Assembly: GCA_014727835.1 (NCBI GenBank)
Contig: WJMT01000129.1
Location: 73,618 to 137,617 of the forward strand
DNA: 64,000 bases
Reading direction: 5' to 3'
From: Candidatus Aminicenantes bacterium
GTDB lineage: Bacteria > Acidobacteriota > Aminicenantia > Aminicenantales > Aminicenantaceae
A program made the translations under genes and the position numbers. Below, piece by piece: positions 8,003 to 62,546 of the stretch (position 1 is its first letter; each line of letters begins with the position of its first letter). A model generated the notes under the pieces. The model was not told where the DNA came from, did not search any database, and saw nothing but the letters and a program-made list of their open reading frames with translations.

Positions 8003-8018
8003 TAAAATTCATCAGAAG

Positions 8019-8079
8019 GCTAAATCTTCAATGTTGCTTCAGCCACACCTGAATTTTATAGGGCTTGAGAGGTGTGGCT
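8019..8079. repeat. Dispersed intergenic repeat family F2 (copy 1), ending in an inverted-repeat hairpin agccacacct...aggtgtggct
   Basis: Core gctaaatcttcaatgtYgcttcagccMcacctgaattt also occurs at 20205..20259 and 62151..62190 (reverse orientation), and partially at 16966..17000. All copies are intergenic and this one follows the transporter stop codon. Confidence 0.5.
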
Positions 8080-19810: not shown

Positions 19811-20080
19811 ATGATTAAAAAGGACATTGTTCAGAGAATAGAGGAAAATTCAGGATTCAGCAGAGGTGATTCCTTAGTTATTGTTGACTCCATTTTAGAT
19901 CATATAAAAGAATCCTTACAAAAAGGGGAAAAGATCGAGATCAGAGGTTTTGCCAGTTTTAAAGTGGTCCCCAAAAAGACAGGCTATGGAAGAGATATCC
20001 GGAGAAACAAACAGATCAAGATCAAAAAGGGGAAAAGAATCAAATTCAAGCCAGGGCAGGAGCTCAAAGGCCTCAGCTGA
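19811..20080 (+). CDS. HU/IHF-family DNA-binding protein
   Basis: MIKKDIVQRIEE... with the arm region GFASFKVVPKKTGYGRDIRRNKQIKIKKGKRIKFKPGQELK. AGGAG RBS 12 nt upstream. The ORF-track start at 19754 is a TTG extension. Confidence 0.8.
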   Translation: MIKKDIVQRIEENSGFSRGDSLVIVDSILDHIKESLQKGEKIEIRGFASFKVVPKKTGYGRDIRRNKQIKIKKGKRIKFKPGQELKGLS

Positions 20081-20175
20081 TCTTACCGCATCTGCTTTGT
20101 TGCAGGGAATTCGCAGTGGAGGACCACAGCCTCACACCCTGCGCCTTGCATCAACGGCAGCCTCAGCTTGTGAAT
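20078..20175. repeat. Dispersed intergenic repeat family F1 (copy A), about 95 nt with an internal hairpin
   Basis: gatcttaccgcatctgctttgttgcagggaattcgcagtggaggaccacagcctcacaccctgcgccttgcatcaacggca. Homologous copies at 25702..25797 and 39141..39232. Begins within the ihf stop codon. Confidence 0.6.
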
Positions 20176-20204
20176 TTCCCAGGATCGTAAACTTGTCTGT
20201 GAAC

Positions 20205-20259
20205 GCTAAATCTTCAATGTCGCTTCAGCCCCACCTGAATTTCCTAAGGGCTCAAATCG
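20205..20259. repeat. F2 repeat copy 2
   Basis: gctaaatcttcaatgtcgcttcagccccacctgaatttcctaagggctc, located 30 nt after the F1 copy. Confidence 0.5.
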
Positions 20260-20337
20260 ATTTTTATTCAATTATCAATAGTCAATTTATCATTTGATGT
20301 GTTTTTATGTATGATGGAAGCAGATAAGGAGACCACC

Positions 20338-21303
20338 ATGAGCAAATATAAATATGAGCCCTTATGGCCTAAAGACTTGAAAACCTATCCCTTGAAATCA
20401 AGAAAAAGCAAGGTCTCACAAAAAAATTTTGGGAAGCCGTTCAAATCTGATCCCAGTTTTTGGAAATTTATAGACAGCCTTCCTGATATTTTAGCAGCAA
20501 AGGATTTCAAAACACTTCTGCATTCCATTCGCAATGCCCGTAAAAAAGAAAAACCGATCATTGTTTCCATGGGAGCTCATGTGATCAAAGTGGGGCTCAA
20601 TCCATTGCTCATAGACCTTATGCAAAGGGGTTGGATCAATGGTCTGGCTCTGAATGGAGCAGGGATCATCCATGACTTTGAGATCGCTTTTTCAGGAAAG
20701 ACTTCAGAAGAGGTGAAAAGTCAAATCGCTCAGGGTGATTTTGGGATGGCCCGAGAGACCGGAGAATTTCTGAATAAAGCCATCCATTCAGGGAGTCAGA
20801 TAGGAATTGGGATGGGCGAGTCTATTGGAAAATTGATTCATGATTCTGATTTTCCCTATAAAAAATGGAGCTTGCTTTCATCTGCTTTTGAACTGAATAT
20901 TCCTGTCACTGTTCATGTGGGAGTGGGAACAGATATCATCCACTTTCATCCTCATGCAGAAGGTTCTTCGATTGGGAAAACTTCTCTCCAGGACTTTTTT
21001 CTGTTTTGTTCTCTGATCAAGAATCTAGAGGGAGGAGGAATCTATATCAATATCGGGTCAGCTGTTGTGCTTCCGGAAGTGTTTCTGAAAGCGGTCTCCT
21101 ATGTGAGAAACCGAGGCGGGAGACTTGAAAACTTTCACACAGCTGTGTTTGATTTCAACACTCATTACAGGCCTTTACAAAATATTGTCCAAAGGCCTTT
21201 TAAGGATAAAAAAGGCAAGGGATTTTATTTTATCGGACACCATGAAATCATGATTCCTTTACTGGCTGCGTGTTTGAAAAGCATCAGCGGGAGAGAGAAG
21301 TGA
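20338..21303 (+). CDS. Conserved hypothetical protein (Gly-rich motifs GAHVIKVGL / LNGAGIIHDFE / VHVGVGTDIIHFHPH)
   Basis: 322 aa from MSKYKYEPLW, with a GGAG RBS. No family assigned from memory. The 3' end overlaps coaE by 20 nt (convergent). Confidence 0.55.
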   Translation: MSKYKYEPLWPKDLKTYPLKSRKSKVSQKNFGKPFKSDPSFWKFIDSLPDILAAKDFKTLLHSIRNARKKEKPIIVSMGAHVIKVGLNPLLIDLMQRGWINGLALNGAGIIHDFEIAFSGKTSEEVKSQIAQGDFGMARETGEFLNKAIHSGSQIGIGMGESIGKLIHDSDFPYKKWSLLSSAFELNIPVTVHVGVGTDIIHFHPHAEGSSIGKTSLQDFFLFCSLIKNLEGGGIYINIGSAVVLPEVFLKAVSYVRNRGGRLENFHTAVFDFNTHYRPLQNIVQRPFKDKKGKGFYFIGHHEIMIPLLAACLKSISGREK

Positions 21304-21913
21304 TATCCATAATGAGAAATCGATACACTTTTTCAGCCTGTTCCACAGTGGATGAAATGCTGCCAGAGGTATCTATCAAATAATCCGCATATTTTTTCTT
21401 TTCTTGATGCGGCATTTGAGAGCGTATTCGATTCCTTGCCTCTTTCTCGGATATCCCGTCTCTTTTCATTAGACGGCGGGTTTGGATTTTTGGGCTGCAA
21501 AAGACCACAATGATTTTATCAAATTCGTCAGCTAAACCCGCTTCAATGGTTAAGGCGGCTTCAGATATGAAGATGTGATTGCGGGGATTCTGTTTCAATT
21601 TATCAATCAATTTGAGTCTGCGTTTGTTGACTAGGGGATGGGTCACTGAGTTAAGGAAGCGGCGTTGTTTTTCATCTGAAAACACAATTTTCCCCAGTTT
21701 TGAACGGTTGATGGTTTGATCCTGGTTTAAGATCGATGTTCCGAAGTGATGGACGATTTTTTTCCAAGCCGGTTTTTCTGGTTCCATGAGGAGATGTGCT
21801 TCTCTATCCGCATAAAACACTGTGCAGCCCAAATTTTCAAAGACTTTTGATGCGATGGATTTACCTGTGGCAATGCCTCCGGTCAAAGCAACTGTTAATA
21901 AAAAATGGTTCAT
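21284..21913 (-). CDS. coaE: Dephospho-CoA kinase
   Basis: P-loop VALTGGIATGKS at the N-terminus. 209 aa, typical CoaE length. Confidence 0.85.
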   Translation of the reverse strand: MNHFLLTVALTGGIATGKSIASKVFENLGCTVFYADREAHLLMEPEKPAWKKIVHHFGTSILNQDQTINRSKLGKIVFSDEKQRRFLNSVTHPLVNKRRLKLIDKLKQNPRNHIFISEAALTIEAGLADEFDKIIVVFCSPKIQTRRLMKRDGISEKEARNRIRSQMPHQEKKKYADYLIDTSGSISSTVEQAEKVYRFLIMDITSLSR

Positions 21914-21947
21914 GGAGCCATCTCAATTCACTGAGATAACCATGGGG

Positions 21948-22319
21948 TCAGTCCAGGAATTTGTACTTTTTGTTAAAGTGGACTGCGATGTTGAGCTTTT
22001 TTTTCTTTGAGTCTGTTTTCTCCATGCGAACCGTGGAGCCGGATAAAGACAGCTTGGTCTTTTTTCCATCTGTCAACTTTGACGGAATATCAATGGTCAG
22101 GTTCAACTTTGTATCTATGGTGATTCTTGCATTGAGTCCAAAATAAGCCCCACCAGAGCTGATGTTGTCAATGGTTGTTGTTTCGCTGAAGTTTTCTCCA
22201 TTGGGAAGTTTGCCTTTGATCTCAGCTTTGAGAGGCATATCAAGCCTCCACTCTCTCCTTCGGTTCAACAGTTGATCATGAATGTCTTTTTGTTTCTTGG
22301 GCTTTTTCTTTTTTGTCAT
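21948..22319 (-). CDS. PilZ domain protein (canonical c-di-GMP binding motifs)
   Basis: RxxxR (RRREWR) followed by DxSxxG (DNISSGGAY). Start set at MTKKKKPKK with a GAGAGG RBS. The ORF track adds 20 upstream codons. Confidence 0.75.
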   Translation of the reverse strand: MTKKKKPKKQKDIHDQLLNRRREWRLDMPLKAEIKGKLPNGENFSETTTIDNISSGGAYFGLNARITIDTKLNLTIDIPSKLTDGKKTKLSLSGSTVRMEKTDSKKKKLNIAVHFNKKYKFLD

Positions 22320-22344
22320 AATGGCCTCTCGAAAATTAAAATTG

Positions 22345-23031
22345 TCAGAACAAAGCTGAATTAATGGCATACAAGGCAAGTTGGAGCCTGCTGTGAGTCC
22401 CCAATTTTGCGTAAATGCTTTTTATATGTGACCTGACCGTATTTTTGCTGATAAACATTTCATTGGCGATTTGTTCATTGCTTTTTCCCTGACCGATGTG
22501 TCTCAACACCTTGAATTCCGTTGGAGTGAGTTGATCCAGTGTCTTTTCTTTCAAATCCCTTCCCACCACAGATATGATCCGGTCCATGATGCTGCTCATT
22601 TTATCCCTGGGCAGCCATATTTCTTCTCTATAGATGCTTCGGGTTGCATCAGCAAGCTGGCCTGACGGTTCATTCAGGTCAAAATATCCTCTGACTCCGG
22701 AATTCATCAGTCCAACGATCTCTTCCTGAGGAGGAATGTTGCCAATGAGCATGAGTTTGGATTTCTTTTTATCTCCAGTGATGTCTTTGATCGCTTTACA
22801 GACCTCTTTGATATTGGGCAGGGGATCGGTGTTGGAGAAAACAATGACGTCAGGATTGTCTGCTTTTATGGAATTGAGCAAAGAATCTATGGTGGATTTC
22901 TCTATTCCGATGATGTTGATTTCAGGCCCTTTCTCTAACGCTTTGATGATTCCGGATAGAATCAGATCCGAGGGACAATAAACCAACACTTTTATTTTTT
23001 TTTCTGAGGCTTTTGATTTATTTTTTTTCAT
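22345..23031 (-). CDS. LuxR-family transcriptional regulator with a degenerate receiver-like N-domain
   Basis: C-terminal HTH LuxR signature (LTPTEFKVLRHIGQGKSNEQIANEMFISKNTVRSHIKSIYAKLG). 228 aa. Confidence 0.8.
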   Translation of the reverse strand: MKKNKSKASEKKIKVLVYCPSDLILSGIIKALEKGPEINIIGIEKSTIDSLLNSIKADNPDVIVFSNTDPLPNIKEVCKAIKDITGDKKKSKLMLIGNIPPQEEIVGLMNSGVRGYFDLNEPSGQLADATRSIYREEIWLPRDKMSSIMDRIISVVGRDLKEKTLDQLTPTEFKVLRHIGQGKSNEQIANEMFISKNTVRSHIKSIYAKLGTHSRLQLALYAINSALF

Positions 23032-23210
23032 GATAGAGACGATTTATCCCCTTGTGATGAAATTGTATTGTCAGCATGAATTTGAAAATATATTAATCAA
23101 TCAAAATATCTATGTCAAGATTATAGATGAGCTGCTATCAGTGAGGGAAACTATGGGTGAAATTGAAAACAAAGATTCAATTGTGCTGGATTATTACAAA
23201 ATCGGCCTTG

Positions 23211-23564
23211 TTATGAGTCTTTTTCAATGTCGAAATGTTTGAATAATTTTAGGAGTATGTTTTGTTGTTTCGGATTATTGGTTTCTTTTGCCGCTTTGGT
23301 GACCTCGCCCAGCACAATCAATTTCAAGGGATGCTCAAGAAAAAGGGTTTTGGGAACGGCCAGAGAGGCTCTGAGAGTGGTCCCGATCAATACTTTTGTT
23401 TTGAGTTCAAACAAAGCTCTTTCAGAACTGATCTGTTTCAGAGAGGTCTTTTCTCTGAATTCATTTCCCTTGGCATCACGTCCTTGAATGTGTGCCTTGA
23501 GAGATAAAGAAAAACACTCTTCTTTTAGAGGCTTTGATGGGATGTGAGATACGGTTTTGTTCAT
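23211..23564 (-). CDS. PilZ-like small protein (degenerate motifs)
   Basis: 117 aa. Paralogous to the flanking PilZ proteins in its C-terminal beta-barrel region, but the RxxxR/DxSxxG motifs are not conserved. Confidence 0.45.
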   Translation of the reverse strand: MNKTVSHIPSKPLKEECFSLSLKAHIQGRDAKGNEFREKTSLKQISSERALFELKTKVLIGTTLRASLAVPKTLFLEHPLKLIVLGEVTKAAKETNNPKQQNILLKLFKHFDIEKDS

Positions 23565-23567
23565 GCT

Positions 23568-23927
23568 TTATTTGTATTCATCAATAATGTATTTGTTTTC
23601 AAAATGCACGGATACACGGGATTTTGAGCTCTCATCCACAGCTTCTTCCACAAATATGGTTTTGCCTTTGATGATCATTTTCAAGTCCCTGTTTTCCTTT
23701 AATTTGGGAGGAAGGTCAATGGTCAGCCGGAGTTCTGATCCGTTTGAAACCAAAGTGTTGAGCCAGAAAGATGAGCCGCTGGGACTGATGTATTGGAGCA
23801 CTGTTTTTTCTGTAAATTTTTTTCCTGATTTGTCAATACCCTCTACAATGGTGGGGAGAGGAAGTTTGAAGCCTTTTTCTTTTAAAAAATTATCTGTGGT
23901 CCTGGCTTTAATCGAGCGTTTTGTCAT
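23568..23927 (-). CDS. PilZ domain protein (paralog of 21948..22319)
   Basis: Shares the N-terminus MTKRSIKARTT and the C-terminus SVHFENKYIIDEYK with the other PilZ (AVHFNKKYKFLD). Start set at MTKR. Confidence 0.6.
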   Translation of the reverse strand: MTKRSIKARTTDNFLKEKGFKLPLPTIVEGIDKSGKKFTEKTVLQYISPSGSSFWLNTLVSNGSELRLTIDLPPKLKENRDLKMIIKGKTIFVEEAVDESSKSRVSVHFENKYIIDEYK

Positions 23928-24107
23928 TGTCGCTTCCTTTGATGAAAAACTCGCCCATAAGATGCCACAATAAATTGTTGAACACAATCACCTCTATGGA
24001 TGAAATTAGGGGGTGAATTTTTTAACCGAGTTTCTCAACAGGGGGGGCAGCTTGACAAAAAACACGCCTGTGGATAGAATGACCCCAAATAATAATCGGA
24101 GACTGAA

Positions 24108-25550
24108 GTGAATGACAAGAGCCGTTTTGTACAGAAAATAACTCCAAAAAGCACTGATTTTTCCAAATGGTACGTGGAAATCATCCGGAAAGCCGAACTT
24201 GCGGATTATGCGCCTATGAAGGGAATGATGGTGATCAGGCCTTATGGATACGCTGTTTGGGAACATATCAAGAATCATTTGGATAAGAAAATCAAGGAAA
24301 CAGGGCATAAAAATGCTTATTTTCCTCTTTTTATCCCGGAAAGTTTTTTACAAAAGGAGACCGAACACTTGGAGGGCTTTTCTCCTGAAGTCGCATGGGT
24401 GACTCATGGCGGAGAAGATGAACTTGAAGAGCGACTTGCTGTTCGGCCCACGTCAGAGGCCATTATCGGACATATGTATTCCAAGTGGATCAATTCCTAC
24501 AGAGATCTTCCGGTCCTTATAAACCAATGGGCTAATATCGTGAGGTGGGAAAAAGTCACCCGGCCCTTTCTGCGCACCGCGGAATTTTTATGGCAGGAAG
24601 GTCACACCGCTCATGAGACAAGTCAGGAAGCTGAGGAAGAGACTCAAAAAATGCTGTCTGTTTATAAGGAGTTCATAGAGAATGAATTAGCTATATCTTT
24701 GATTTCCGGATTGAAAAGCGAGAGAGAGAAATTTGCAGGAGCTTCGGCCACTTACTGTGTGGAAGCCTTGATGTCTGATAAAAAAGCGCTTCAAATGGGG
24801 ACTTCTCATTTTCTCGGACAGCATTTTTCTAAGGTTTTTGATGTCAAGTTTGAAGACAGGAACCAAGAGCTTCAATATGTATGGCAGACATCCTGGGGAG
24901 TCACAACCAGGATGGTGGGGGCTTTGGTTATGGTTCACGGAGATGATTCGGGACTGTGTTTTCCTCCCAGAGTGGCTCCTGTCCAAGTCATCATTGTTCC
25001 GATTTCTGTCGGAGATTGGAAGAAGACTGTACTTCCACATGCAGAAAAAGTGAAAAAAAAGCTGGAGAATAAAGGATTCAGAGTGGAATTGGATGATAGG
25101 GAGCAATTCACTCCGGGCTGGAAGTTTTCAGAGTGGGAGATGAAGGGAGTTCCTCTGAGATTGGAAATCGGGCCCCGGGATATTGAAAACAATAACGTGG
25201 TTCTGGTGCGTCGGGACAATCGAAAAAAACAAGTGGTCAGTCAGGATCAAATGATAGAGAAAGGGCATGAAATTTTGGATGATATCCAGAAAAGTATGCT
25301 GAATGCGTCTTTGAAGTTTCGCGAGGACAACACCCATGAAGTGAACCATTATTCTGAGTTTCAAGCGATCATGAAATCTAAAATGGGTTTTGTCAAGACA
25401 TTATGGTGCGGGAATCCTGATTGTGAAGCACACATCAAAGAAGACACCAAAGCAACCATCAGAGTCATTGCTTCAGAAAAGGAAAAGGGGAGTTGTGTTT
25501 ATTGCGACAAAGATGCGCATTTGGTTGTTTATTTTGCCAGAGCCTACTGA
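24108..25550 (+). CDS. proS: Prolyl-tRNA synthetase, archaeal/eukaryotic type
   Basis: 480 aa with class II motifs. C-terminal Zn-binding CxxC...CxxC domain (CGNPDCEA...CVYCD) and no INS editing domain, matching the archaeal-type ProRS architecture. Confidence 0.9.
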   Translation: MNDKSRFVQKITPKSTDFSKWYVEIIRKAELADYAPMKGMMVIRPYGYAVWEHIKNHLDKKIKETGHKNAYFPLFIPESFLQKETEHLEGFSPEVAWVTHGGEDELEERLAVRPTSEAIIGHMYSKWINSYRDLPVLINQWANIVRWEKVTRPFLRTAEFLWQEGHTAHETSQEAEEETQKMLSVYKEFIENELAISLISGLKSEREKFAGASATYCVEALMSDKKALQMGTSHFLGQHFSKVFDVKFEDRNQELQYVWQTSWGVTTRMVGALVMVHGDDSGLCFPPRVAPVQVIIVPISVGDWKKTVLPHAEKVKKKLENKGFRVELDDREQFTPGWKFSEWEMKGVPLRLEIGPRDIENNNVVLVRRDNRKKQVVSQDQMIEKGHEILDDIQKSMLNASLKFREDNTHEVNHYSEFQAIMKSKMGFVKTLWCGNPDCEAHIKEDTKATIRVIASEKEKGSCVYCDKDAHLVVYFARAY

Positions 25551-25552
25551 AA

Positions 25553-25650
25553 TAGGTTGTTCATAAAATCTGCCTGCATCCTTTTTCAAAAAAACTTTGA
25601 TTCTGATCTATGGGATTTTGTCCATCCGGAGATGACTGTTTTGCTGGTTC
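25553..25650. repeat. Direct repeat copy 1 of a 262-bp tandem duplication
   Basis: taggttgttcataaaatctgcctgcatcctttttcaaaaaaactttgattctgatctatgggattttgtccatccggagatgactgttttgctggttc. About 95% identical to 25815..25911. Confidence 0.7.
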
Positions 25651-25701
25651 GTATTCATGAATTATTTGATGTGCAGGCATGTTTTCCTCTTTGAGCGAGT
25701 C

Positions 25702-25797
25702 GATCTCACCGCATCTGCTTTGTTACAAGGCATTCGCAGTGAAGGACCACACCTTCATGCCTTGTGCCTTGCATCTGCGGCAATATCGTCTCGTGAA
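25702..25797. repeat. F1 repeat copy B (between the two direct repeats)
   Basis: gatctcaccgcatctgctttgttacaaggcattcgcagtgaaggaccacaccttcatgccttgtgccttgcatctgcggcaat. Perfect 7+6 bp two-part stem. Confidence 0.6.
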
Positions 25798-25814
25798 CAA
25801 CCTATTTCAATACT

Positions 25815-25911
25815 AAGTTGTTCATAAAATCTGCCTGCACCGTTTTTCAAAAAAACTTTGATTCTGATCTATGGGGTTTTGTCCATCCGGAGATGACTAT
25901 TTTGCTGGTTC
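25815..25911. repeat. Direct repeat copy 2 of the 262-bp tandem duplication
   Basis: Five mismatches in 98 nt relative to copy 1. Overlaps the ORF-track 5' extension of pcm. Confidence 0.7.
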
Positions 25912-26000
25912 TTCTTCTTGATATTTGGGATACAAAAACCTATATTAAAAAGAATGATTCGGAATACGAAAAAAGAAGGGCGAACTCAGAGAGTCCCAAT

Positions 26001-26627
26001 ATGGATTTGAAAAAGAAACAAAAGCAGATGGTCGAGATTCAGCTCAAAACAAGAGGAATCCGGGACCCAAAAGTTTTGGAGGCCATGAACAAAGTCCAAA
26101 GACATGAATTTGTCCCCAATAATTTGAATATGAATGCTTATGACGATGAGCCCCTGCCTATAGGAAGCGGACAAACCATATCTCAACCTTATGTTGTCGC
26201 CTACATGACAGAGGTTCTGAAGCTCAAAGGAGAGGAGAGAGTTCTTGAAATCGGTACAGGATCCGGATATCAAGCAGCTGTGTTAGCTGAAATTGCAAAA
26301 CAAGTCTTCACTGTGGAAGTCAGCAAAGAACTGGCAGAAAAAGCTCAGAGAATCCTTGAGAAATTAGGATACCATAACATTGAATACAAAATCGGGGATG
26401 GGACTTTAGGATGGGAAGAGCACGCTCCCTATGATGCCATTATGGTCACTGCGGCTCCTGGAAAAACACCGGAACCTCTCAAAGAACAGCTTCGATCAGG
26501 GGGGAGAATGATCATTCCTGTGGGTCATGCCTTCCAGAATCTTATTTTGTATGAAAAGTCAGATGGGAAAATCAAAAAGAAAAAACTGCTGCCTGTGCGT
26601 TTTGTGCCTCTGGTATCTAGGCATTGA
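26001..26627 (+). CDS. pcm: Protein-L-isoaspartate O-methyltransferase
   Basis: SAM-binding VLEIGTGSGYQAAVLA. A 208-aa alignment to E. coli Pcm starts at MDLKKKQ. The ORF-track start 25818 lies inside a non-coding repeat. Confidence 0.85.
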   Translation: MDLKKKQKQMVEIQLKTRGIRDPKVLEAMNKVQRHEFVPNNLNMNAYDDEPLPIGSGQTISQPYVVAYMTEVLKLKGEERVLEIGTGSGYQAAVLAEIAKQVFTVEVSKELAEKAQRILEKLGYHNIEYKIGDGTLGWEEHAPYDAIMVTAAPGKTPEPLKEQLRSGGRMIIPVGHAFQNLILYEKSDGKIKKKKLLPVRFVPLVSRH

Positions 26628-26641
26628 AGGAAAACAATCTC

Positions 26642-27130
26642 ATGACAAACGATCAAAAAACAGCAAACCAGACATCATTGGTTTTTAAAATGAGCGGAGT
26701 TGTGCTTTTTGGGATTCTTTTATTTTTGGGGAGTTTGAATTCGGTTTGTTCCACGGAGGAATACACACAGGTCTTTTTGCCTGGTGGAGAGGTGATCCAT
26801 GCTGAATTGGCTGTGACAGACCAGGAAAGGCAGCTGGGACTGATGTTTCGGGATGCCATCAATGAGGACCAGGGTATGCTTTTTATTTTTGAAAGAGAGA
26901 GCGTGCATTCATTTTGGATGAAAAATATGAAAATCAGTATCGATATCCTCTGGCTCGATAAAGATAAGCGAATTGTTCATATAGAGAAAAATGTCCCTCC
27001 GTGTCAGACTCAAGACTGCCCCTCTTATGATCCCGGGGTCTTGTCAAAATATGTCCTGGAGATCAAAGCGGGGTTAGCAGAGGAATATGAATTGAAACTC
27101 TATGATAAAGTGGATTTTATTTTAGATTGA
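26642..27130 (+). CDS. DUF192 domain protein (secreted)
   Basis: Signal-like N-terminus. Core GLMFRDAINEDQGMLFIFE...ISIDILWLDKDKRIVHI is typical of DUF192. AAGGA RBS. Confidence 0.7.
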   Translation: MTNDQKTANQTSLVFKMSGVVLFGILLFLGSLNSVCSTEEYTQVFLPGGEVIHAELAVTDQERQLGLMFRDAINEDQGMLFIFERESVHSFWMKNMKISIDILWLDKDKRIVHIEKNVPPCQTQDCPSYDPGVLSKYVLEIKAGLAEEYELKLYDKVDFILD

Positions 27131-28267
27131 ATTTGATTGTTGGTGAATGAGCTTCGCCAGTTCAGCTGCGGCATGGGCCGAAGCATTTTTGGTTCCCACT
27201 TGTTTTATTATTTTTTTAAATTCAGCGATCATTTTATTTCGAGTTTCAGCAGAGTCCAGAATTCTTGATGTCTGCCTCAATAGGGATTCTGGATTGAAAT
27301 CCTTTTGAATCAACTCTGGGATGACTTCTTTGTCTGCTATGATGTTCACAATGCTGAAATGTTTGGTTTTGACAATTTTCTTTCCGAAAAAATAGGAAAG
27401 TGGGGAAATCCTGTAAAATGAGATCAAAGGAGTTCCCAGAAGAGCTGTCTCCAGGTTTGCGGTTCCACATGCGGAGAGAACAAGGTCGCTGTAGGCCAGA
27501 GATTCCAATCCATTTTGTTTCAGTATTTTGACTGAAGAAAGCGAATCTGGAAAATATCTTTTCACTTCAGATTCCGGGATGGTTTCAGAAAGTTTTAAAA
27601 GGAATTGAGGCCTGTACTTTTGTGCGATTTTATGGGCTGCATTGACCAGCACGGGCAGATGCTGCTTGATTTCACTGCTGCGGCTTCCAGGAAGAAGAGT
27701 GATCAATTTTTTGTTAAAAGGGATATTGTGTTTATCAAAGAACTGCTGTTTGGATAAAGAGACTTGAGTTTTTTGAACCAAAGGATGACCCACAAACACA
27801 GCTGGAATCTGCTCTTTTTGGTATATTTTTTCTTCAAACGGAAAGATGAGCATCATCTTGTTCACATGTTTTTTTATTGTTTTCAGGCGCTTCCTTCTCC
27901 AGGCCCAGACGGTAGGGCTTATATAATACAACACAGGGACTCTCATTTTTTGGAGCTTTTTGGCGATTCTCAGGTTGAAATCAGGAGAGTCAATCAGGAC
28001 AGCGCATTTGGGGTTCCTTTTTTTTGTCTCCGCCTGGATTAGACGCAGCATTTTCAATACACGTGGAATGTGGAAAAAAACTTCAAAGATCCCGATGAAG
28101 GAAAGATCTTTTATGGTAAAAAGAAGTTCCACCCCTTGATTTTTCATCTGTTTTCCTCCGATTCCGTAGAAACGGGCTTTAGGGTGGAGCTTTTTGAATT
28201 CCTGCACCAGATCAGCCCCATATTGTTCGGCAGAACTTTCCCCGGCGATGATCAGGATCTGGTCCAT
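27122..28267 (-). CDS. lpxB: Lipid-A-disaccharide synthase
   Basis: 381 aa. N-terminal IIAGESSAEQYGADL (GT19 LpxB signature) and conserved central blocks. Confidence 0.9.
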   Translation of the reverse strand: MDQILIIAGESSAEQYGADLVQEFKKLHPKARFYGIGGKQMKNQGVELLFTIKDLSFIGIFEVFFHIPRVLKMLRLIQAETKKRNPKCAVLIDSPDFNLRIAKKLQKMRVPVLYYISPTVWAWRRKRLKTIKKHVNKMMLIFPFEEKIYQKEQIPAVFVGHPLVQKTQVSLSKQQFFDKHNIPFNKKLITLLPGSRSSEIKQHLPVLVNAAHKIAQKYRPQFLLKLSETIPESEVKRYFPDSLSSVKILKQNGLESLAYSDLVLSACGTANLETALLGTPLISFYRISPLSYFFGKKIVKTKHFSIVNIIADKEVIPELIQKDFNPESLLRQTSRILDSAETRNKMIAEFKKIIKQVGTKNASAHAAAELAKLIHQQSNSI

Positions 28268-28269
28268 AT

Positions 28270-28812
28270 TTAATCTTCCATCTGGCTAAAATACACGATT
28301 TCAGGCATTGTTTCCGGATCTTGACCAAAATAGAACAGCCACTTGTTGTAGGTTTCTTGTTTGATGTATATTTTTTTTGATTTTTTGTCGGATGAACTCA
28401 CCACACCAATGATTTGGGGTTGATCCAGAGATTCAATATCACTCTTAGAAGCCACAATAACTTTTTGAAAAGAGGTTCCCTGTCGGGAAGTTGACTGCGG
28501 ATGGAGAAGGATGACATTCCATTCTCCTGAAAGACTCATGGGATCTGTGTACAATCTGCGGATACATTTTTCTTGGAGAAGCTCTTCTAGGCGTTGAGGA
28601 AAAGTGCCCGGATATTTGTTTTGGAATATTCTTATGGCTTCCACATATTGTTTACCCCTGAAAATGAGTTCTTTCTCTTGTTCTCTCTGGATTTGAGTCT
28701 GCCACACCGGAACCGCAACCATGAGACCTATGCTCAAAACCGCCACAGCAAACAAGAGGATCAGCATCATTGCACCGGATTCGTGGCTGGATTTATGAAT
28801 GTTTATGGGCAT
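28270..28812 (-). CDS. Hypothetical membrane protein, pseudopilin-like context
   Basis: 180 aa with a single N-terminal TM helix. Immediately downstream of two GspG-like genes. No GFTLIE prepilin motif. Confidence 0.4.
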   Translation of the reverse strand: MPINIHKSSHESGAMMLILLFAVAVLSIGLMVAVPVWQTQIQREQEKELIFRGKQYVEAIRIFQNKYPGTFPQRLEELLQEKCIRRLYTDPMSLSGEWNVILLHPQSTSRQGTSFQKVIVASKSDIESLDQPQIIGVVSSSDKKSKKIYIKQETYNKWLFYFGQDPETMPEIVYFSQMED

Positions 28813-28827
28813 ATTGAACGAAAAAAC

Positions 28828-29277
28828 TCACCAAGTGTTGTAAGGGGTTCCATCCAGACTGATGTCTTCAGAGCCAGAGCGAACGTCACTGATTCCAGGA
28901 ACTTGACCGCTCAAAAGTTCTTCATCGGTCAGGGTTTCCTCCACTTCAATCCATGTTTGATTGGATTGTGTTATGGGGTCTTTGGGGATCTTTAACAAAT
29001 ACTCTTCATCTATCAGTGTTTTTAATGATGGGGGATATTCCCCTTTATCCAGGCAGTATTGATTGAGCAGTTTTCTCATGATGAATAAATTTTCTTTCAG
29101 AGTCGCCTCTCTCGCTCTCTTGGCTGCATATTTGTATTGTGGAATTCCCATAGCCACCAAAATCCCTATCAGGGTGAACACGATCATGATTTCAATCAGA
29201 GTAAATCCTGCTTCTGTGCCTTGTCTGAGTGAGGGACTGATGATCCTGTTTTTACCAGTCTTTGTATTTTGTTTCAT
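28828..29277 (-). CDS. Type II secretion/type IV pilin-like pseudopilin (GspG family)
   Basis: Prepilin cleavage/methylation motif GFTLIEIMIV followed by a hydrophobic helix. Start is uncertain; the ORF track extends to 29352. Confidence 0.65.
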   Translation of the reverse strand: MKQNTKTGKNRIISPSLRQGTEAGFTLIEIMIVFTLIGILVAMGIPQYKYAAKRAREATLKENLFIMRKLLNQYCLDKGEYPPSLKTLIDEEYLLKIPKDPITQSNQTWIEVEETLTDEELLSGQVPGISDVRSGSEDISLDGTPYNTW

Positions 29278-29734
29278 TGATGGCTGTTTCCTCGCTTTTT
29301 GAGTAGACATCATAGACATTTTCTCCCCCCCATGTATCTGAGTCAAACTCATCCTGATAGGAACGCAGGCCCCATTCTCCGGTTGGACTCATGGGATCTT
29401 TAGGAATGCGTCTTAGAAACTTTCTTATTTTGACAGATTCTTCCTCATCCTCATCTGATTTGATTTCAACGCCCATCACCAAAGTCTCCAAGTCCGGAGG
29501 GTAACCAAAGGTGTCTTCTTCGAAATCAATTTTTTTATCGTCAGCCAATCTTTTGTATTCGTCGATGGCCTCTCGGATCATGCGGAGATTTCTCTGAAGA
29601 TGGATTTCTTTTTGTCGCTTTATAGAGATTTTTGCTAAAGGTATGGCGCCGGCAGCAAGAATGGAAATGATGGTCAAGGTGACCAGCATTTCAATCAGAG
29701 TGAAACCTTTGATTTCTTTGGCATAAAGTTTCAT
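29252..29734 (-). CDS. Type II secretion system pseudopilin G-like protein
   Basis: Classic N-terminus MKLYAKEIKGFTLIEMLVTLTIISILAAGAIP. 160 aa. Confidence 0.75.
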   Translation of the reverse strand: MKLYAKEIKGFTLIEMLVTLTIISILAAGAIPLAKISIKRQKEIHLQRNLRMIREAIDEYKRLADDKKIDFEEDTFGYPPDLETLVMGVEIKSDEDEEESVKIRKFLRRIPKDPMSPTGEWGLRSYQDEFDSDTWGGENVYDVYSKSEETAINETKYKDW

Positions 29735-29758
29735 CTCTTTAAACCAGATTGCAAATGG

Positions 29759-31924
29759 TTAGAACCAGTCTTTTTTTCTTTTATCCTTTTGATACCGGGA
29801 ATTTTTGTTATTTGTGTTTTTCTTATTTTTATAGGAATCTTTTTTGTCCTCAATAGCTTTTTTGCTCAAACGGACTCTATTTTTATCGTCAATAGCTGTG
29901 ACTTTCACTTTGATTTTCTGTCCCATTTTAAGAACATCTCTTATGTTTTTTATATGCCGGTGAGAGATTTCAGAGATATGAAGCAATCCGTCTGCATTGG
30001 GAAGGATCTGGACAAAGGCTCCATAGTCTTCAATCCTCACCACTTTCCCTTCATAGATTTTTCCGACCTCAGGTTCTTCTGTGATGTCATTGATCATTCT
30101 TTCAGCTTTATGTACAGCTTCCATATCAGGCGAAGCAATGGTGATTTTTCCGTCCTCTTCAATATCGATTTTGGCTTTAGTCTCGGAAATGATTTTCTTT
30201 ATGGTCTTTCCCGAGGGACCAATGACTTCTCCTACTTTAGAAGGATTGACAAAAAGATTGATGATGCGCGGAGCATAAGGGGAAATGTCGGGCCGGGATG
30301 TGGATAAGGCCTCATTCATTTTGGACAGGACTTTAAGTCTGGCTTGTCTTGCTTTTTCAAAAGCTTGTTTGAGAACTTCGAGGGAGAGAGAGGGTATTTT
30401 TAGGTCCATTTGAACGGCTGTGATTCCTTTGTCTGTACCTGCCACTTTGAGGTCCATATCTCCGAAATGATCTTCAAATCCAGCAATGTCTGACAGAAGG
30501 ATGTGTTCCTCATCTTGAGATATGAGACCAATGGCGATACCTGCTACAGTCATGGATAATGGAACCCCGGCATCCATCAAAGCGAGAACACCGCCGCAGA
30601 CTGTGGCCATGGAAGAAGAGCCATTTGATTCCAAAATATCTGAGACCAGTCTTATGGTGTATGGAAACTCTCCATCGTCTTTGGGGACAGAGCGAAGCAT
30701 GGCTTTTTCTGCGAGAGCTCCGTGGCCGATTTCTCTTCGTCCCGGACCTCTTAAAAAGGCCACTTCTCCCACACTGAAGGGGGGAAAGTTGTAGTGGACC
30801 ATGAATTTTTTTTCGCTCTCCTCACCCAAACCGTCAATGGTCTGGGTGTCTTCAAAAGTCCCTAGGGTCACTGTACACAAGCTTTGTGTTTCGCCTCTTG
30901 TGAAAAGGGCAGAACCATGGGTCCGGGGAAGCATTCCTGTCTCAATGGAGATCGGTCTTATTTCATCAAACTGTCTTCCGTCTGGTCTGATTTTTTCTTT
31001 GATGATCATAGAGCGGACAAGTTCTTTGAGGATTCGGTCATAGATTTCTTTGGTTTCATTGATTTCATTTTCATTGTCTTCAGGAATCTCATCCAGCAGA
31101 GAATCTTTAACCTGATTGAGTCCTGTTTTCATCTCGGGTTGATTCTTTGCTTTTATGGCCTCTCTTAAGGGGCTTGAGATTTTTTGCTTTATGGAATCGT
31201 ATTTGGCTTGGTCAATGGATTTGGGGGTGACTTCTTGTTTTTTTATATTCAATTGTTGGAAAAGTTCTTTCTGAGCATTGATGATTTTTTTTATGGGTTC
31301 TTGAGCTAATTGACAAGCTTGGATGATGACCTCTTCGCTTGCCTGGTCAGCACCTGCTTCAATCACCACGATCCCGTCTTCATTGCCCACCACGACCATA
31401 TCCAGGGGGCATTCATCGATTTCGCTTTTGGGAGGATTGATGGCCAATTGTCCGTTGACCAGTCCTACCTTGACTGCTCCGAGTGGGGATGAATAAGGGA
31501 TGGGTGAAAAATAAAGCGCTACAGATGCTCCGATGATTCCCAGTGTGTCAGCTTCGTTTTCAATGTCTGCAGACAGCAGTCTGGCAATGACCTGAGTTTC
31601 ATTGAAATAGTTATCCGGAAACAGAGGGCGTATGGGCCTGTCTATAAGCCTGCTCATCAATATTTCTCTGTCAGTAGGGCGTCCTTCCCTTTTGAAAAAA
31701 CCTCCAGGAATTTTTCCTGCGGCATAGGTGTTTTCTCTGTAATCAACAATAAGAGGGAGAAAGGATTTGGTATCTCCCTTTTCTCTCTTGGCGCATGCAG
31801 AAACAAAAAGCACCGTATCTCCGTAGCGAAGCACTGCGGATCCATCGGCCTGCCTGGCAAGCTTATTGATTTCAATATTGAGTTCACGGTTTCCGATTTG
31901 TAGATTGATTTTATGATGTGACAT
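29759..31924 (-). CDS. pnp: Polyribonucleotide nucleotidyltransferase (PNPase)
   Basis: 721 aa. Two RNase PH domains, then KH and S1 domains, and a Lys-rich C-terminal tail. Downstream of rpsO as usual. Confidence 0.95.
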   Translation of the reverse strand: MSHHKINLQIGNRELNIEINKLARQADGSAVLRYGDTVLFVSACAKREKGDTKSFLPLIVDYRENTYAAGKIPGGFFKREGRPTDREILMSRLIDRPIRPLFPDNYFNETQVIARLLSADIENEADTLGIIGASVALYFSPIPYSSPLGAVKVGLVNGQLAINPPKSEIDECPLDMVVVGNEDGIVVIEAGADQASEEVIIQACQLAQEPIKKIINAQKELFQQLNIKKQEVTPKSIDQAKYDSIKQKISSPLREAIKAKNQPEMKTGLNQVKDSLLDEIPEDNENEINETKEIYDRILKELVRSMIIKEKIRPDGRQFDEIRPISIETGMLPRTHGSALFTRGETQSLCTVTLGTFEDTQTIDGLGEESEKKFMVHYNFPPFSVGEVAFLRGPGRREIGHGALAEKAMLRSVPKDDGEFPYTIRLVSDILESNGSSSMATVCGGVLALMDAGVPLSMTVAGIAIGLISQDEEHILLSDIAGFEDHFGDMDLKVAGTDKGITAVQMDLKIPSLSLEVLKQAFEKARQARLKVLSKMNEALSTSRPDISPYAPRIINLFVNPSKVGEVIGPSGKTIKKIISETKAKIDIEEDGKITIASPDMEAVHKAERMINDITEEPEVGKIYEGKVVRIEDYGAFVQILPNADGLLHISEISHRHIKNIRDVLKMGQKIKVKVTAIDDKNRVRLSKKAIEDKKDSYKNKKNTNNKNSRYQKDKRKKDWF

Positions 31925-31944
31925 GATTGTCCTTTGTGAAACTG

Positions 31945-32211
31945 CTATTTTCTTAAATTCAGTTTTTTGATGATTTTGTTGTAACGGTTGATATCTTTGT
32001 TTTTAAGATAATTCAGAAGGTCTTTTCGCTGTCCAACCAGCTTGAGAAGACCTTGTTTGGAGTGAAAATCTTTCTTATGTGTTGAAAAATGCTGGGTGAG
32101 AGAATTGATGCGATGAGTGATCAATGCGATTTGGATTTCTGGTGAACCGGTGTCTTTGGAATTTATTTTAAAGTCTTTGATGATTTTGTTTTTTTCTTCT
32201 TTGTCCAACAC
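31945..32211 (-). CDS. rpsO: 30S ribosomal protein S15
   Basis: 88 aa. [23 protein letters not shown]...[16 protein letters not shown] aligns throughout with E. coli S15. Confidence 0.9.
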
Positions 32212-32290
32212 GAAAATATTCTCCTTAAAATTAGTTTCTTATACTATCAGAAAACACTACAAATGTAAATTGCACTGAGTTTTGCTGTTT

Positions 32291-32824: not shown

Positions 32825-33004
32825 CTCAGAATCAAGTCCTCCTTGATGTTGGGCATAGAGTCAGTTTGATGCCCTCTCATGTCATTTCTTCCTTGATTAA
32901 GGGAAGATTTATTAAAATTGGTTTTTAAGGATATCAGAAAATCAAACAAAAATAAACACCTTATTCTGGACTATCAAAAGGAAATCTTATATATTTTTTT
33001 TGCT

Positions 33005-35124: not shown

Positions 35125-35130
35125 CCTGGA

Positions 35131-36306: not shown

Positions 36307-36404
36307 ATTGAATCTTCAAAATAACATATTATGATTTTCATTTGAACACAAAAATCATATAATCTGAATGAAGCCGAAGAGTGACGATTATGGAAGGATA
36401 AAAA

Positions 36405-38993: not shown

Positions 38994-39140
38994 CCTGGAT
39001 TGTTCATAAAAAAATGGCGATATAATTATAATCATTTCATTTTGTGCGATTGACAAGACTATTTCAAAAACAATAACTTGAAGATTTTTCTTGTTTGTCT
39101 TTTTATTTTAATCGCCATTTTTTGACCTTTCAGGCGAGCC

Positions 39141-39232
39141 CATCTTACGGGATCTGCTTGGTTACAAGGCATTCGCAGTGAACACACCTTCATGCCATGC
39201 GCCTCGCATCTGCCGCAATGTTGACTGGTGAA
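39141..39232. repeat. F1 repeat copy C
   Basis: catcttacgggatctgcttggttacaaggcattcgcagtgaacacaccttcatgccatgcgcctcgcatctgccgcaat. Shorter inner stem and loop. Confidence 0.6.
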
Positions 39233-39263
39233 TAATCCAGGTGAGTTTCCGATTTTGTTTCAT

Positions 39264-39292
39264 TTGACAATCGTGAGCTGCAATTCTATAGT
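39264..39292 (+). promoter_or_regulatory. Putative sigma70-type promoter for the permuted phosphoglycerate mutase gene
   Basis: TTGACA - 17 nt - TATAGT, about 35 nt upstream of the ATG. AAAGGA RBS 9 nt before the start codon. Confidence 0.4.
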
Positions 39293-39327
39293 ATTTTTTT
39301 TCTAATTCCCTTCCAAAGGAAATTAAA

Positions 39328-62103: not shown

Positions 62104-62150
62104 AACTAACCTGGATTATTCACGAATCAAGGTTTTAAGCTTGATGAAAC

Positions 62151-62190
62151 TCAGGTGTGGCTGAGGCGACATTGAAGAAGAAATGTTGTG
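62151..62190. repeat. F2 repeat copy (reverse orientation) inside the ileS leader
   Basis: Reverse complement reads cttcaatgtcgcctcagccacacctgagttt. The adjacent gtgaataatccagg string also occurs next to the F1-C copy at about 39227. Confidence 0.5.
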
Positions 62191-62314
62191 AATGGTTAAT
62201 GGTGAAATGTAAATTGAAAAACCTTTCACTATTGACCATTGACCATTGACTGCATATCCCACAGACAGCGGGAGTTGCGCAGCAGCCGAAAATACAGTGC
62301 GAAGAATAGCGTTA

Positions 62315-62350
62315 AAAATCTGAACAGAGCACAAGCCATTGCTGAATTTC
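62315..62350. repeat. F3 repeat copy 2 inside the ileS leader
   Basis: aaaatctgaacagagcacaagccattgctg versus aaatctgaacagagcccaagccacgctg at 14248. Confidence 0.4.
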
Positions 62351-62546
62351 AGATGAGCTTGCCTGAAAGGTCAATAAATGGCCATTAGGATTGATAATAG
62401 CAACAAGAAAAATGCTTGAGTCATTGTTTTTGAGAAAAGTTTGCCATATGCTGAAAAGAAAATGATAATGAATAGTCCAGGCTAAACTGGATTCTTGAAT
62501 GGAAATGGACATTATTATGAATATATTGAGTTAATCGGAGAGATGC

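Follow-up and report, generated by a model that had tools for sequence, protein, structure and literature searches.

Copies of the repeat in the 64-kb window

The window (the whole 64-kb stretch of DNA that was analysed) carries four intergenic copies of one repeat: copy C is full length, copy B is nearly so, copy A is truncated at its 5' end, and copy D lies on the minus strand and contains a nested repeat. According to Pfam, the genes next to the copies encode HU/IHF, ProRS, PCMT, an M23 peptidase and iPGM. The first-pass annotation had described a dispersed 95-nt hairpin element (F1) in three intergenic copies on the plus strand (20078-20175, 25702-25797 and 39141-39232). We recovered all three at those positions and on that strand, and their 29-nt core matched three times with up to 3 mismatches, against 0 matches expected. 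Their pairwise identity, put at about 80-90%, was similar when measured (80-88%). The extent of 95 nt proved too small, given that the unit is ~253 bp long and that homology continues for ~140 nt further to the left in copies B and C. The set of three was incomplete as well, missing copy D and a partial unit next to copy B.

Copy C (38994..39241, plus strand; 248 bp) is a complete element that matched positions 1-253 of the nhmmer model (E 3.7e-64) and begins right after the TAA stop codon (38991-38993) of the M23 peptidase gene. Its left outer TIR CCTGGATTGTTCAT (38994..39007, plus strand) pairs with the right TIR TGAATAATCCAGG (39229..39241, plus strand). The inner TIR box AAAAAAATGGCGAT (39008..39021, plus strand) is the inverted repeat of ATCGCCATTTTTTG (39111..39124, plus strand), a partner that is contiguous with the right TIR in a 146-bp short form of the element. 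The GC-rich hairpin module that corresponds to F1 (39133..39228, plus strand) is degraded in this copy, with a 4-nt deletion in the inner stem.

Copy B (25551..25806, plus strand; model positions 6-249, E 5.4e-48) adjoins the TGA stop codon of proS (25548-25550). In the subfamily of copy B, the left module differs and the inner boxes are TCTGCCTGCA and TGCAGGCA; the hairpin of this copy is found at 25694-25794 and both of its outer TIRs are degraded. Two related genomes (L019 and L016) carry the element at the same site. We also found a partial tandem unit, B' (25817..25926, plus strand), which comprises only the left module, at 93% identity to the left module of copy B, and which reflects a direct repeat (D5) of 25553-25660 and 25814-25921. 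Four differences separate the 108-nt tandem-repeat copies; they are not adenine-specific, and DGR-like variation was rejected.

Copy A (20072..20183, plus strand; model positions 145-253, E 2e-30) retains only the hairpin module and the right TIR TGAATTTCCCAGG (20171-20183). Its breakpoint falls at the stop codon of the HU/IHF gene (TGA, 20078-20080), where the first-pass annotation had already placed its start. Copy D (62110..62481, minus strand; model positions 31-154 and 229-253) is flanked by a CTAA duplication (62106-62109 and 62482-62485), and where its inner hairpin would be, a repeat from a second family is nested instead (62146-62350). Each of the three plus-strand copies had been thought to fold; against shuffled sequence, copy B alone is exceptional (z -3.2 on the plus strand and -4.2 on the minus strand), while copies A (z -1.5) and C (z +0.68) are unremarkable. 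All three are in the minority orientation, in which the sense strand bears the weaker hairpin. They are probably old and largely inert insertions, A and C being partly decayed.

Architecture, target duplication and distribution

The aligned consensus of 59 copies is 253 bp long, with main size classes of 252-254 bp, and sequence conservation reaches ~170 nt leftward of the hairpin core. From left to right, the unit comprises an outer TIR CCTGACCTATTCA, an A-run with a box of 8-10 bp, a poorly conserved AT-rich stretch of ~75-90 nt, the box in inverted copy with a T-run, an imperfect GC-rich hairpin of ~100 nt, and the right TIR TGAATAATCCAGG. The TIRs are 13-14 bp long and are visible at the ends of 72 copies. 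We distinguished several subfamilies with co-varying TIR boxes, the inner box changing together with its partner. The hairpin occupies one fixed internal spot, and both element ends were present in 72 of the 115 core matches. The short form (146 bp, TTAA on both flanks) is without the hairpin and has contiguous 28-bp inverted repeats; therefore the hairpin of the long form sits inside the right repeat, placed exactly between the T-run and TGAATA. In the TIR-anchored sample we counted 39 long forms and 14 copies with a nested element versus 8 short forms. Derivatives in which the inner hairpin has been swapped for another repeat are also multi-copy.

Of 51 copies, 26 had identical 4-bp flanks where 3.5 were expected (and at most 10 occurred in 2000 shuffles). 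No such signal was detected at 2, 3 or 6 bp, and at 5 bp the flanks agreed in 2 of 51 copies (0.18 expected). The 4-bp target duplication (TSD) has the consensus T-T-A-R, and the metagenome copies reproduced it (14 of 34 with identical flanks, 3.3 expected). A perfect TSD is missing from about half of the copies, as is expected if they are old, though that age is an assumption. In one intergenic region of genome L025 the element is present, and the window and L047 lack it there; the flanks have diverged too far (~75% identity) to reveal a clean empty site, and other sites are occupied in several species.

The element was present in at least 111 eight-kb blocks from at least 13 MAGs, all of them Aminicenantes-type, with at least 26 blocks in a single MAG, and in at least 120 metagenome stretches, the samples Ga0180433/Ga0180434 and Ga0190359 having many of them; viral contigs gave 0 matches to the hairpin core. 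Overlap with long ORFs was limited to 8 of 118 copies in one set and 1 of 83 in another. Because it combines TIRs, a 4-bp TSD and many dispersed copies with the lack of a transposase gene, we consider F1 to be the internal GC-rich hairpin module of a non-autonomous ~253-bp DNA transposon (MITE), with a probability of roughly 85%. A MITE-like element had been among the readings offered by the first-pass annotation. With 253 bp and a sole ORF of 39 codons, the unit lies within the range of such small elements (~50-800 bp, without a transposase gene).

No transposase-bearing element with the ends of the MITE was found in 231 fetched loci (~1.6 Mb). The autonomous copy was sought as TIR-like end pairs 450-4000 bp apart, as generic CCTG...CAGG inverted ends with matching 4-bp flanks, as long ORFs repeated between loci and, in the metagenome loci, as TIR pairs around a long ORF; every match was a host gene between two MITEs. 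MAGs often lose IS copies. Given this result, we infer mobilisation in trans as well as the IS family: a transposase acting in trans would insert the MITE copies, and each insertion would duplicate a 4-bp TTAR-like target. The CC termini and the TTAA-like duplication of 4 bp suggest a DDE transposase of IS1380 (piggyBac-related) or IS5 type. In ISfinder, the ends of IS1380 begin with CC and are accompanied by 4-5-bp duplications, and the IS5 group of the IS5 family makes 4-bp duplications at YTAR; CC termini and a 4-bp TTAR duplication are what the MITE has in common with these families, and its assignment to either is only a lead. The IS1380 family comprises distant prokaryotic relatives of the piggyBac transposases (PMC10140906).

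Covariation and strand of the hairpin

The stem CAAGGCA/TGCCTTG, the inner stem TGAAGG/CCTTCA and the ACCACA loop of the earlier description were all present. We found that the base-pairing of the hairpin is kept by compensatory changes across subfamilies. In the hairpin-anchored set (74 copies), 11 pairs were changed on both sides, with 82 both-side cells against 22.2 +/- 3.8 after shuffling (reached in 0 of 500 shuffles) and at most 17 in slid controls; in the TIR-anchored metagenome set (36 copies, minus strand), 14 of the 35 stem pairs were changed on both sides, with 65 such cells against 17.5 +/- 6.5 (0 of 500) and at most 7 in slid controls, all these counts being inflated by shared descent within subfamilies. 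Selection on the secondary structure, first proposed from the three copies of the window, is thus supported more strongly by the family as a whole. Of the two compensatory changes reported for copy A, CAGGG/CCCTG is real and family-wide (the pair is G-C in 50 of 74 copies and A-U in 20 of 74). The other, GAGG/CCTC, held only in part: A61>G and T76>C can pair after a one-base shift, but they are not partners in the register of the family. Conservation is high in the hairpin compared with the AT-rich module. In a comparison of orthologous copies that addressed in-situ versus master-copy selection, only two pairs came through the filter.

The hairpin had been read on the plus strand, and its proper pairing lies on the minus strand. 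The hairpin-anchored plus-strand alignment was ambiguous in this respect, and the TIR-anchored minus-strand alignment resolved the question: 96.4% of the cells (36 copies) were paired on the minus strand versus 83.7% on the plus strand. On the minus strand, 174 G·U cells stood against 14 A·C cells (52 against 14 without the four majority-G·U positions), an excess that could partly reflect strand-biased C>T mutation of the non-template strand. Consensus RNA folding gave -89.3 kcal/mol (z -8.8) for the minus strand versus -67.7 (z -5.0) for the plus strand, and the minus strand was the more stable one in 60 of 61 and in 34 of 34 copies. Between co-directional genes, the minus strand was the sense strand in 27 cases versus 8 (p 0.002) and, in a second set, in 21 versus 5 (p 0.0025), a bias that could also come from the replication strand or from insertion preference and not from RNA function. 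Near-complete pairing is found only on the minus strand, which for most flanking genes is the sense strand. These two features point to an RNA-level hairpin carried by the transposon: the MITE would be co-transcribed with its neighbours, and the hairpin would then act as an RNA stem-loop.

Alternative readings and comparison with known elements

The strong covariation would also be expected if transposition required the hairpin in DNA form. The hairpin divides the 28-bp right repeat into inner and outer parts, and its extrusion in single-stranded or supercoiled DNA would rejoin these parts for the transposase, with selection acting in master copies. The contiguous repeats of the short form, the exact placement of the long-form hairpin and the predominance of the long form in the TIR-anchored sample agree with such a function. 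A cruciform, however, needs both strands paired, and the plus strand has A·C mismatches in ~13% of cells; moreover, 8-9 unpaired nt (ACCTTTCAG) part the inner repeat from the stem base, the derivatives with a replaced hairpin are multi-copy too, and no orientation bias relative to genes would be predicted. We regard this DNA-level role as quite unlikely. It also seems very unlikely that the hairpin is a free-standing structured sRNA, one of the proposals of the first-pass annotation, or a cis-regulatory RNA family to which the surrounding repeat is incidental. Covariation, the G·U asymmetry between strands and conservation above that of the AT-rich module would all suit an RNA family of this kind, and it would be a new one, since no Rfam family matched at the gathering score in the whole window or at E <= 1 in 19900-39400. 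Most untruncated hairpins, however, sit at one position in an element bounded by TIRs and TSD. On the strand that pairs well, only 13 nt lie between the element end and the start of the hairpin, too few for an internal promoter; no conserved promoter was found ahead of the hairpin, and the AT-rich module gave only weak sigma-70-like matches (9/12) for an outward promoter, with variable hexamer positions. After the hairpin comes GTGAATAA on the plus strand and CCTGAAAGGTAAAAAAA on the minus strand. The scan for rho-independent terminators returned no site in copies A, B and C on either strand, and no T-run follows any copy; the suggestion that copy A also serves as a terminator therefore fails. 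The flanking genes are mutually unrelated, so a gene-specific riboswitch-like role is unlikely.

A further proposal was a palindrome of the REP/REPIN or BIME kind, which would be spread by a RAYT (IS200/IS605-type tyrosine transposase) and not by a DDE enzyme. GC-rich extragenic palindromes, compensatory changes and nesting in mosaics are common to both, and the imperfect hairpin of ~100 nt resembles a REP doublet. REPs, however, lack both TIR and TSD and are moved by RAYTs, and the proposal fails because the Aminicenantes MITE has a TIR as well as a TSD and because its hairpin is fixed inside a larger element and does not disperse independently. Its stem base also has no GTAG or CGTC tag, of the kind carried by REPs, which are 20-40 nt long (PMC3733652). 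We hold an origin of this kind to be highly improbable. Hardly any credence can be given to the view that the MITE carries a small protein gene, namely the 39-codon minus-strand ORF (MAIKIKN...SPFFYE), which lies behind the hairpin and an AAGG resembling a Shine-Dalgarno sequence and whose product might be, for example, a type I toxin whose leader is structured. Among the 31 copies of the 126-nt length class, 21 keep this frame open, while the other frames have 4-5 stops, and public data include 12 small proteins that gene callers derived from it. Stop-creating variants are nevertheless not depleted (9/192 versus 0.060 expected), variability by codon position is almost flat (0.81, 0.87 and 0.93 bits), a 1-nt indel distinguishes half of the copies, and the most prolific subfamily (the at least 26 blocks of one MAG) has ATT instead of ATG. 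Its conserved N- and C-termini fall on the inverted repeats of the DNA, and the subfamily of copy B has an unrelated left module. Protein matches were confined to hypothetical proteins of 37-63 aa, and no longer protein (transposase) shared the N- or the C-terminus.

Prokaryotic MITEs, whose definition has been reviewed together with the RNA-level roles of Correia and ERIC, share with the Aminicenantes element a small size (253 bp here), TIRs of at least 10-15 bp, a short TSD, AT-rich intergenic sites, a high copy number without a transposase, a stable predicted stem-loop, and clustering and nesting with other small repeats (PMC10969869, PMC11602168). Unlike in MITEs in general, the hairpin does not consist of the pairing TIRs; it is a separate GC-rich module inside the right TIR. 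Our literature search returned no publication that combined Aminicenantes with MITEs. The family is previously undescribed, and it is an ordinary kind of element that represents no new class of system.

Transcripts of the Correia elements of Neisseria (CREE/NEMIS) fold into long hairpins that RNase III cleaves, reportedly at the TIRs, and the expression of neighbouring genes is affected (PMC10969869). The Aminicenantes MITE is likewise dispersed close to gene starts, and its orientation and position bias points to what may be a comparable host-level effect; its main stem, unlike that of Correia, is an internal module, and the two have no sequence similarity. Correia duplicates TA, whereas the Aminicenantes MITE duplicates 4 bp (TTAR). 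ERIC is not known to have a clear TSD and has a low copy number in E. coli. In the Aminicenantes MITE the TSD is clear, two modules make up the architecture, and the TIR boxes co-vary across several subfamilies. The ERIC (IRU) sequences of enterobacteria are imperfect palindromes of ~127 bp in transcribed intergenic regions, and they affect mRNA stability through RNA structure in an orientation-dependent manner (PMC10969869).

The most likely role of the MITE-borne hairpin would be that of a Correia/ERIC-like structure for mRNA processing or stabilisation, a tentative assignment to which we give somewhat less than an even chance. A bolder version, which we think unlikely, would make the hairpin a functional G·U-rich RNA module of ~100 nt that the MITE spreads and that occupies a cassette position for alternative cargo. 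If so, the host or the element would use a minus-strand stem-loop in many Aminicenantes transcription units, for instance as an RNase III processing site or as a 3'-end stabiliser by which the expression of one gene is uncoupled from that of its neighbour. In that case the MITE would serve to carry a regulatory RNA structure to sites all over the genome, and the spot between GGCGAGCCGAT and CCTCGACTCG would be the cassette position, with either the inner hairpin or the second repeat family as cargo.

The Aminicenantes are uncultured and, to our knowledge, their mobile elements and regulatory RNAs are essentially undescribed. Although the element is of an ordinary kind, the signs that its hairpin is selected as a folded single strand are unusually clear. 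The MITE offers a clean natural case of a transposon-borne hairpin that combines covariation, a strand-specific G·U excess and an orientation bias, and these three features make a role at the RNA level testable with metatranscriptomes. The MITE family also gives a marker for insertion polymorphism. Finally, many of its copies were located at the contig ends of MAGs, which explains many of the contig breaks in Aminicenantes MAGs.

The hairpin belongs to a MITE

The first-pass annotation had described a 95-nt intergenic hairpin in three copies. All three were recovered in place on the plus strand, with the CAAGGCA/TGCCTTG and TGAAGG/CCTTCA stems and the ACCACA loop; the aligned copies (A, B and C) share 81% mean column identity, flanks included, and the 29-nt hairpin core was found three times with ≤3 mismatches allowed, where chance predicts 0 matches. 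The size did not hold. When copies were stacked on the conserved core GCTTNGTTNCANGGNATTCGCAGTG, conservation extended ~170 nt leftward beyond it, and an alignment of 59 copies gave a consensus unit of 253 bp of which the hairpin is a part. From left to right, the unit comprises CCTGACCTATTCAT, AAAAAAATGGCGAT, an AT-rich stretch of ~90 nt, ATCGCCATTTTTTT, ACCTTTCAG, the GC-rich hairpin and TGAATAATCCAGG, and its ends are mutual inverted repeats.

A copy search was run with GCTTNGTTNCANGGNATTCGCAGTG on one genome per species (GTDB), a set that leaves out the window's own genome. We detected at least 111 eight-kb blocks from at least 13 MAGs, 26 of them, among the matches listed, from a single MAG; many copies were located at contig ends. 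The nearest syntenic loci to the window show 72-78% nucleotide identity. All MAGs among the matches listed were labelled Aminicenantes, Acidobacteriota or "uncultured Eubacteriales bacterium"; the last (L002, L007, L011-L013, L018, L019 and others; CAY*/CAZ* TPA assemblies) are nevertheless syntenic with the window and with Aminicenantes MAGs (e.g. L019 with window 20474-25797), and their taxon label is probably wrong.

We also searched for target-site duplications, as had been suggested. Among 72 copies with both ends recognised, the flanking tetranucleotides were often equal (TTAG/TTAG, ATAA/ATAA, TGTA/TGTA, GAAG/GAAG, CCAG/CCAG and others). Identical 4-bp flanks were found in 26 of the 51 distinct clean-ended copies, against a mean of 3.5 and a maximum of 10 in 2000 shuffles that re-paired left and right flanks at random; the same 51 copies gave no excess signal at 2, 3 or 6 bp, and 2/51 against 0.18 expected at 5 bp. 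Metagenome copies, retrieved via the terminal repeat and not via the hairpin, had identical flanks in 14 out of 34 cases (3.3 expected). The target consensus is T-T-A-A/G. The copies are intergenic: overlap of more than 40 nt with a long ORF was found in only 8/118 and 1/83 of them (two sets). One intergenic region that carries the element in the related genome L025 is without it in the window and in L047.

MITEs are defined by their small size, terminal inverted repeats (TIRs), short target duplication, high copy number and lack of a transposase (PMC10969869, PMC11602168). The hairpin-bearing unit is a MITE, a non-autonomous transposon; this was one of the ideas in the annotation, and the TIRs, the 4-bp duplication and the intergenic multi-copy spread bear it out. 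No transposase-bearing element with the same ends was found in ~1.6 Mb of fetched loci. An IS1380-type or IS5-type enzyme is suggested by the CC ends together with the TTAA-like 4-bp duplication, as a lead and not a result. The IS1380 family is distantly related to piggyBac (PMC10140906).

The Rfam check returned 0 matches at the gathering score in the whole window and 0 at E ≤ 1 in window 19900-39400. A literature search found no paper linking Aminicenantes and MITEs, and a MITE survey of 183,232 genomes makes no mention of Aminicenantes. The family is new and its kind of element well known; what stands out is the hairpin's position in a split repeat, the alternative cargo found there and the clean asymmetry between the strands.

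Architecture, subfamilies and nested elements

The short form of the element (146 bp, TTAA/TTAA flanks) lacks the hairpin, and its 28-bp inverted repeats are uninterrupted; in the long form, therefore, the right repeat is split by the hairpin, which sits between the T-run and TGAATA. A box of 8-10 bp beside the A-run varies among subfamilies and always matches its own inverted partner: ATGGCGAT/ATCGCCAT, ATTGCGAT/ATCGCAAT, ATGGTGAT/ATCACCAT, TATGTATGCAT/ATGCATACATA, TCAGCCTGCAT/ATGCAGGCTGA and, in copy B, TCTGCCTGCA/TGCAGGCA. Such matching would be expected if both ends evolve in step with a cognate transposase.

In a TIR-anchored sample of 107 classifiable sites, 39 were long forms with the hairpin, 14 carried the nested second repeat behind the hairpin base, at a site that recurs right after GGCGAGCCGAT, 8 were short forms, and the remaining 46 were of other types, among them deletion derivatives and solo ends. 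The second dispersed family (~200 nt, inverted ends GAAATTCAGGTGTGGCTGAAGCGACATTGAAGATTTAGCCTTC) is present in the window at 8015-8063, 20201-20249 and 62146-62350 (nested in copy D), and elsewhere in loci L016, L022, L146, L150, L155, L167, L198 and L212. At its spot in the hairpin it replaces the inner stem, which looks like site-specific nesting or an alternative cargo cassette.

More elements are nested within the hairpin in ~325-bp forms (L025, L034, L044, L060, L079, L080) and in 383-bp forms (L003, L009, L010, L031, L050). One of them, with ends resembling GTCATTACGAGGAGCGAAGCGACGTGGTGATCTC ... CGCAATGAC, takes the place of the right inner arm; another (AATGTCATCCTGAGCGGAGCGAAGGATC...) is abundant in MAG BLK5-2.bin.174. 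Finally, 'mini' derivatives in metagenome loci (L153, L177, L193, L127, L149) have the AT-rich module almost wholly deleted (…ATGGCGATGTTCATTTTTTTACC…) and retain the terminal repeats plus the hairpin or the nested repeat.

Structural selection and strand asymmetry of the hairpin

Across 74 distinct hairpin-anchored copies, two-sided changes, whose counts are inflated by common descent inside subfamilies, occurred in 11 pairs of the 30-pair structure and in 82 cells, against 22.2 ± 3.8 in shuffles (0/500 reached 82) and at most 17 when partners were slid by 1-3 columns. Since this set was picked through the hairpin's left arm, we recounted on 36 TIR-found metagenome copies, read on the minus strand with pairs from the structure predicted for the consensus: 96.4% of cells were paired, and two-sided changes, subject to the same inflation, appeared in 14 out of 35 pairs and 65 cells (17.5 ± 6.5 shuffled, 0/500; slid controls at most 7). 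The slid controls retain the relatedness of the copies and still fall far below the observed counts. The hairpin is under structural selection, as had been proposed from compensatory changes. Of these, CAAGG/CCTTG to CAGGG/CCCTG is the strongest pair (G-C in 50 copies, A-U in 20), whereas GAGG/CCTC occurs in copy A alone and pairs only after a shift of register. Folded as isolated RNAs, only copy B clearly beats shuffled sequence (z -3.2 plus, -4.2 minus strand); copy A is unremarkable (z -1.5), and copy C, its inner stem shortened by a 4-nt deletion, folds at chance level (z +0.68).

The pairing is strand-specific, and the proper strand is the minus, not the plus strand on which the hairpin was first read: with the same pair set, standard pairs make up 96.4% of cells on the minus against 83.7% on the plus strand, with 174 G·U against 14 A·C cells (52 against 14 without four G·U-majority positions). 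The consensus fold, a predicted three-way junction of outer repeat, inner repeat and GC hairpin, has an energy of -89.3 kcal/mol for the minus strand (z -8.8) and of -67.7 kcal/mol for the plus strand (z -5.0). The minus strand is more stable in 60 out of 61 hairpins (-49.4 vs -36.9 kcal/mol) and in 34/34 metagenome copies. Orientation towards the neighbours is an independent observation: between co-directional genes the minus strand is the sense strand 27 times against 8 (p 0.002), and 21 against 5 in a second data set (p 0.0025); the AT-rich end points towards a gene start in 64 vs 23 and 50 vs 19 cases (two data sets).

If selection acts on an RNA stem-loop, both a strand-specific tolerance of G·U and a bias towards the sense strand are to be expected. 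Selection on a double-stranded cruciform would not show that tolerance. Part of the G·U excess might come from C>T mutation on the non-template strand, and the orientation bias might stem from a bias in replication strand or in insertion. When co-transcribed with its neighbours, the hairpin may work as an mRNA processing or stabilising structure, a tentative reading to which we give about 35-40%. Such RNA-level action is proposed by likeness to Correia elements, which affect mRNA through RNase III cleavage, and ERIC elements, whose effect on mRNA stability depends on orientation (PMC10969869).

Other roles suggested in the first-pass annotation were not supported. A terminator, proposed for copy A, is ruled out by the absence of a T-run 3' of the hairpin on either strand and by empty terminator scans, and a REP/BIME-like (REP/REPIN) element by the TIR, the target duplication and the fixed internal position of the hairpin. 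A structured sRNA family in the form of a free-standing gene is unlikely, because on the well-pairing minus strand the hairpin starts only 13 nt from the element end. We also rejected as a gene a 39-codon minus-strand ORF (MAIKIKN...SPFFYE): the frame is open in 21 out of 31 copies, in one length class, stop-creating variants are not depleted (9/192 vs 0.060 expected), codon-position variability is nearly flat, half of the copies have a frameshift, the most prolific subfamily has no ATG, and the only matches are hypothetical proteins of 37-63 aa.

Copies in the window

Four copies were located with a profile built from the 253-bp unit. Copy C (38994-39241, plus strand) is complete and starts directly 3' of the TAA stop of the M23 peptidase gene (38991-38993), and copy B (25551-25806, plus; model positions 6-249) directly 3' of the proS TGA stop (25548-25550). 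Copy A (20072-20183, plus) consists of model positions 145-253 only, i.e. hairpin and right repeat, with its breakpoint at the HU/IHF stop codon (20078-20080), as first annotated. Copy D (62110-62481, minus) has CTAA on either side and a second-family repeat in place of the inner hairpin. The flanking genes correspond by Pfam to an HU/IHF-family protein, ProRS, PCMT, M23 peptidase and iPGM; in the iPGM gene (39328-40953) the Metalloenzyme match (residues 74-301) precedes iPGM_N (401-531), which agrees with the permuted iPGM of the first-pass annotation. The HU/IHF ortholog in L019 ends at the same protein length, so copy A left the coding sequence unaltered.

A partial fifth unit (25817-25926) stands in tandem 3' of copy B, which explains a 108-nt direct repeat around it (25553-25660 and 25814-25921, 93% identity) whose halves are the left modules of the two units. 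The MITE also lies directly 3' of proS in two related genomes, with a tandem second unit in one, L019, where the arrangement is the same and the left-module sequence quite different. The sequences at this site suggest either repeated hot-spot insertion or concerted evolution.

Copies C, B and A all begin precisely where the gene before them has its stop codon, and in a wider set 8 out of 23 left ends facing a gene's 3' end abut one. As TAA or TAG is part of the TTAR target, insertion at stop codons may be favoured or tolerated. Copies A, B and C are all oriented as the minority of elements are, and two of them (A and C) carry damage, so they resemble old insertions that are mostly inert. A strong sigma-70-like promoter match (TTGACA-17-TATAGT, 39264-39292; 11/12 matches) separates copy C from the iPGM start; it is probably the gene's own, so the MITE would have inserted upstream of it.

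Elsewhere in the window, a long CT-rich stretch (32430-32834) with 9-12-nt periodicity and 23 overlapping repeat copies lies within a minus-strand ORF (32291-32824) predicted to encode a lysine/glutamate-rich low-complexity protein.
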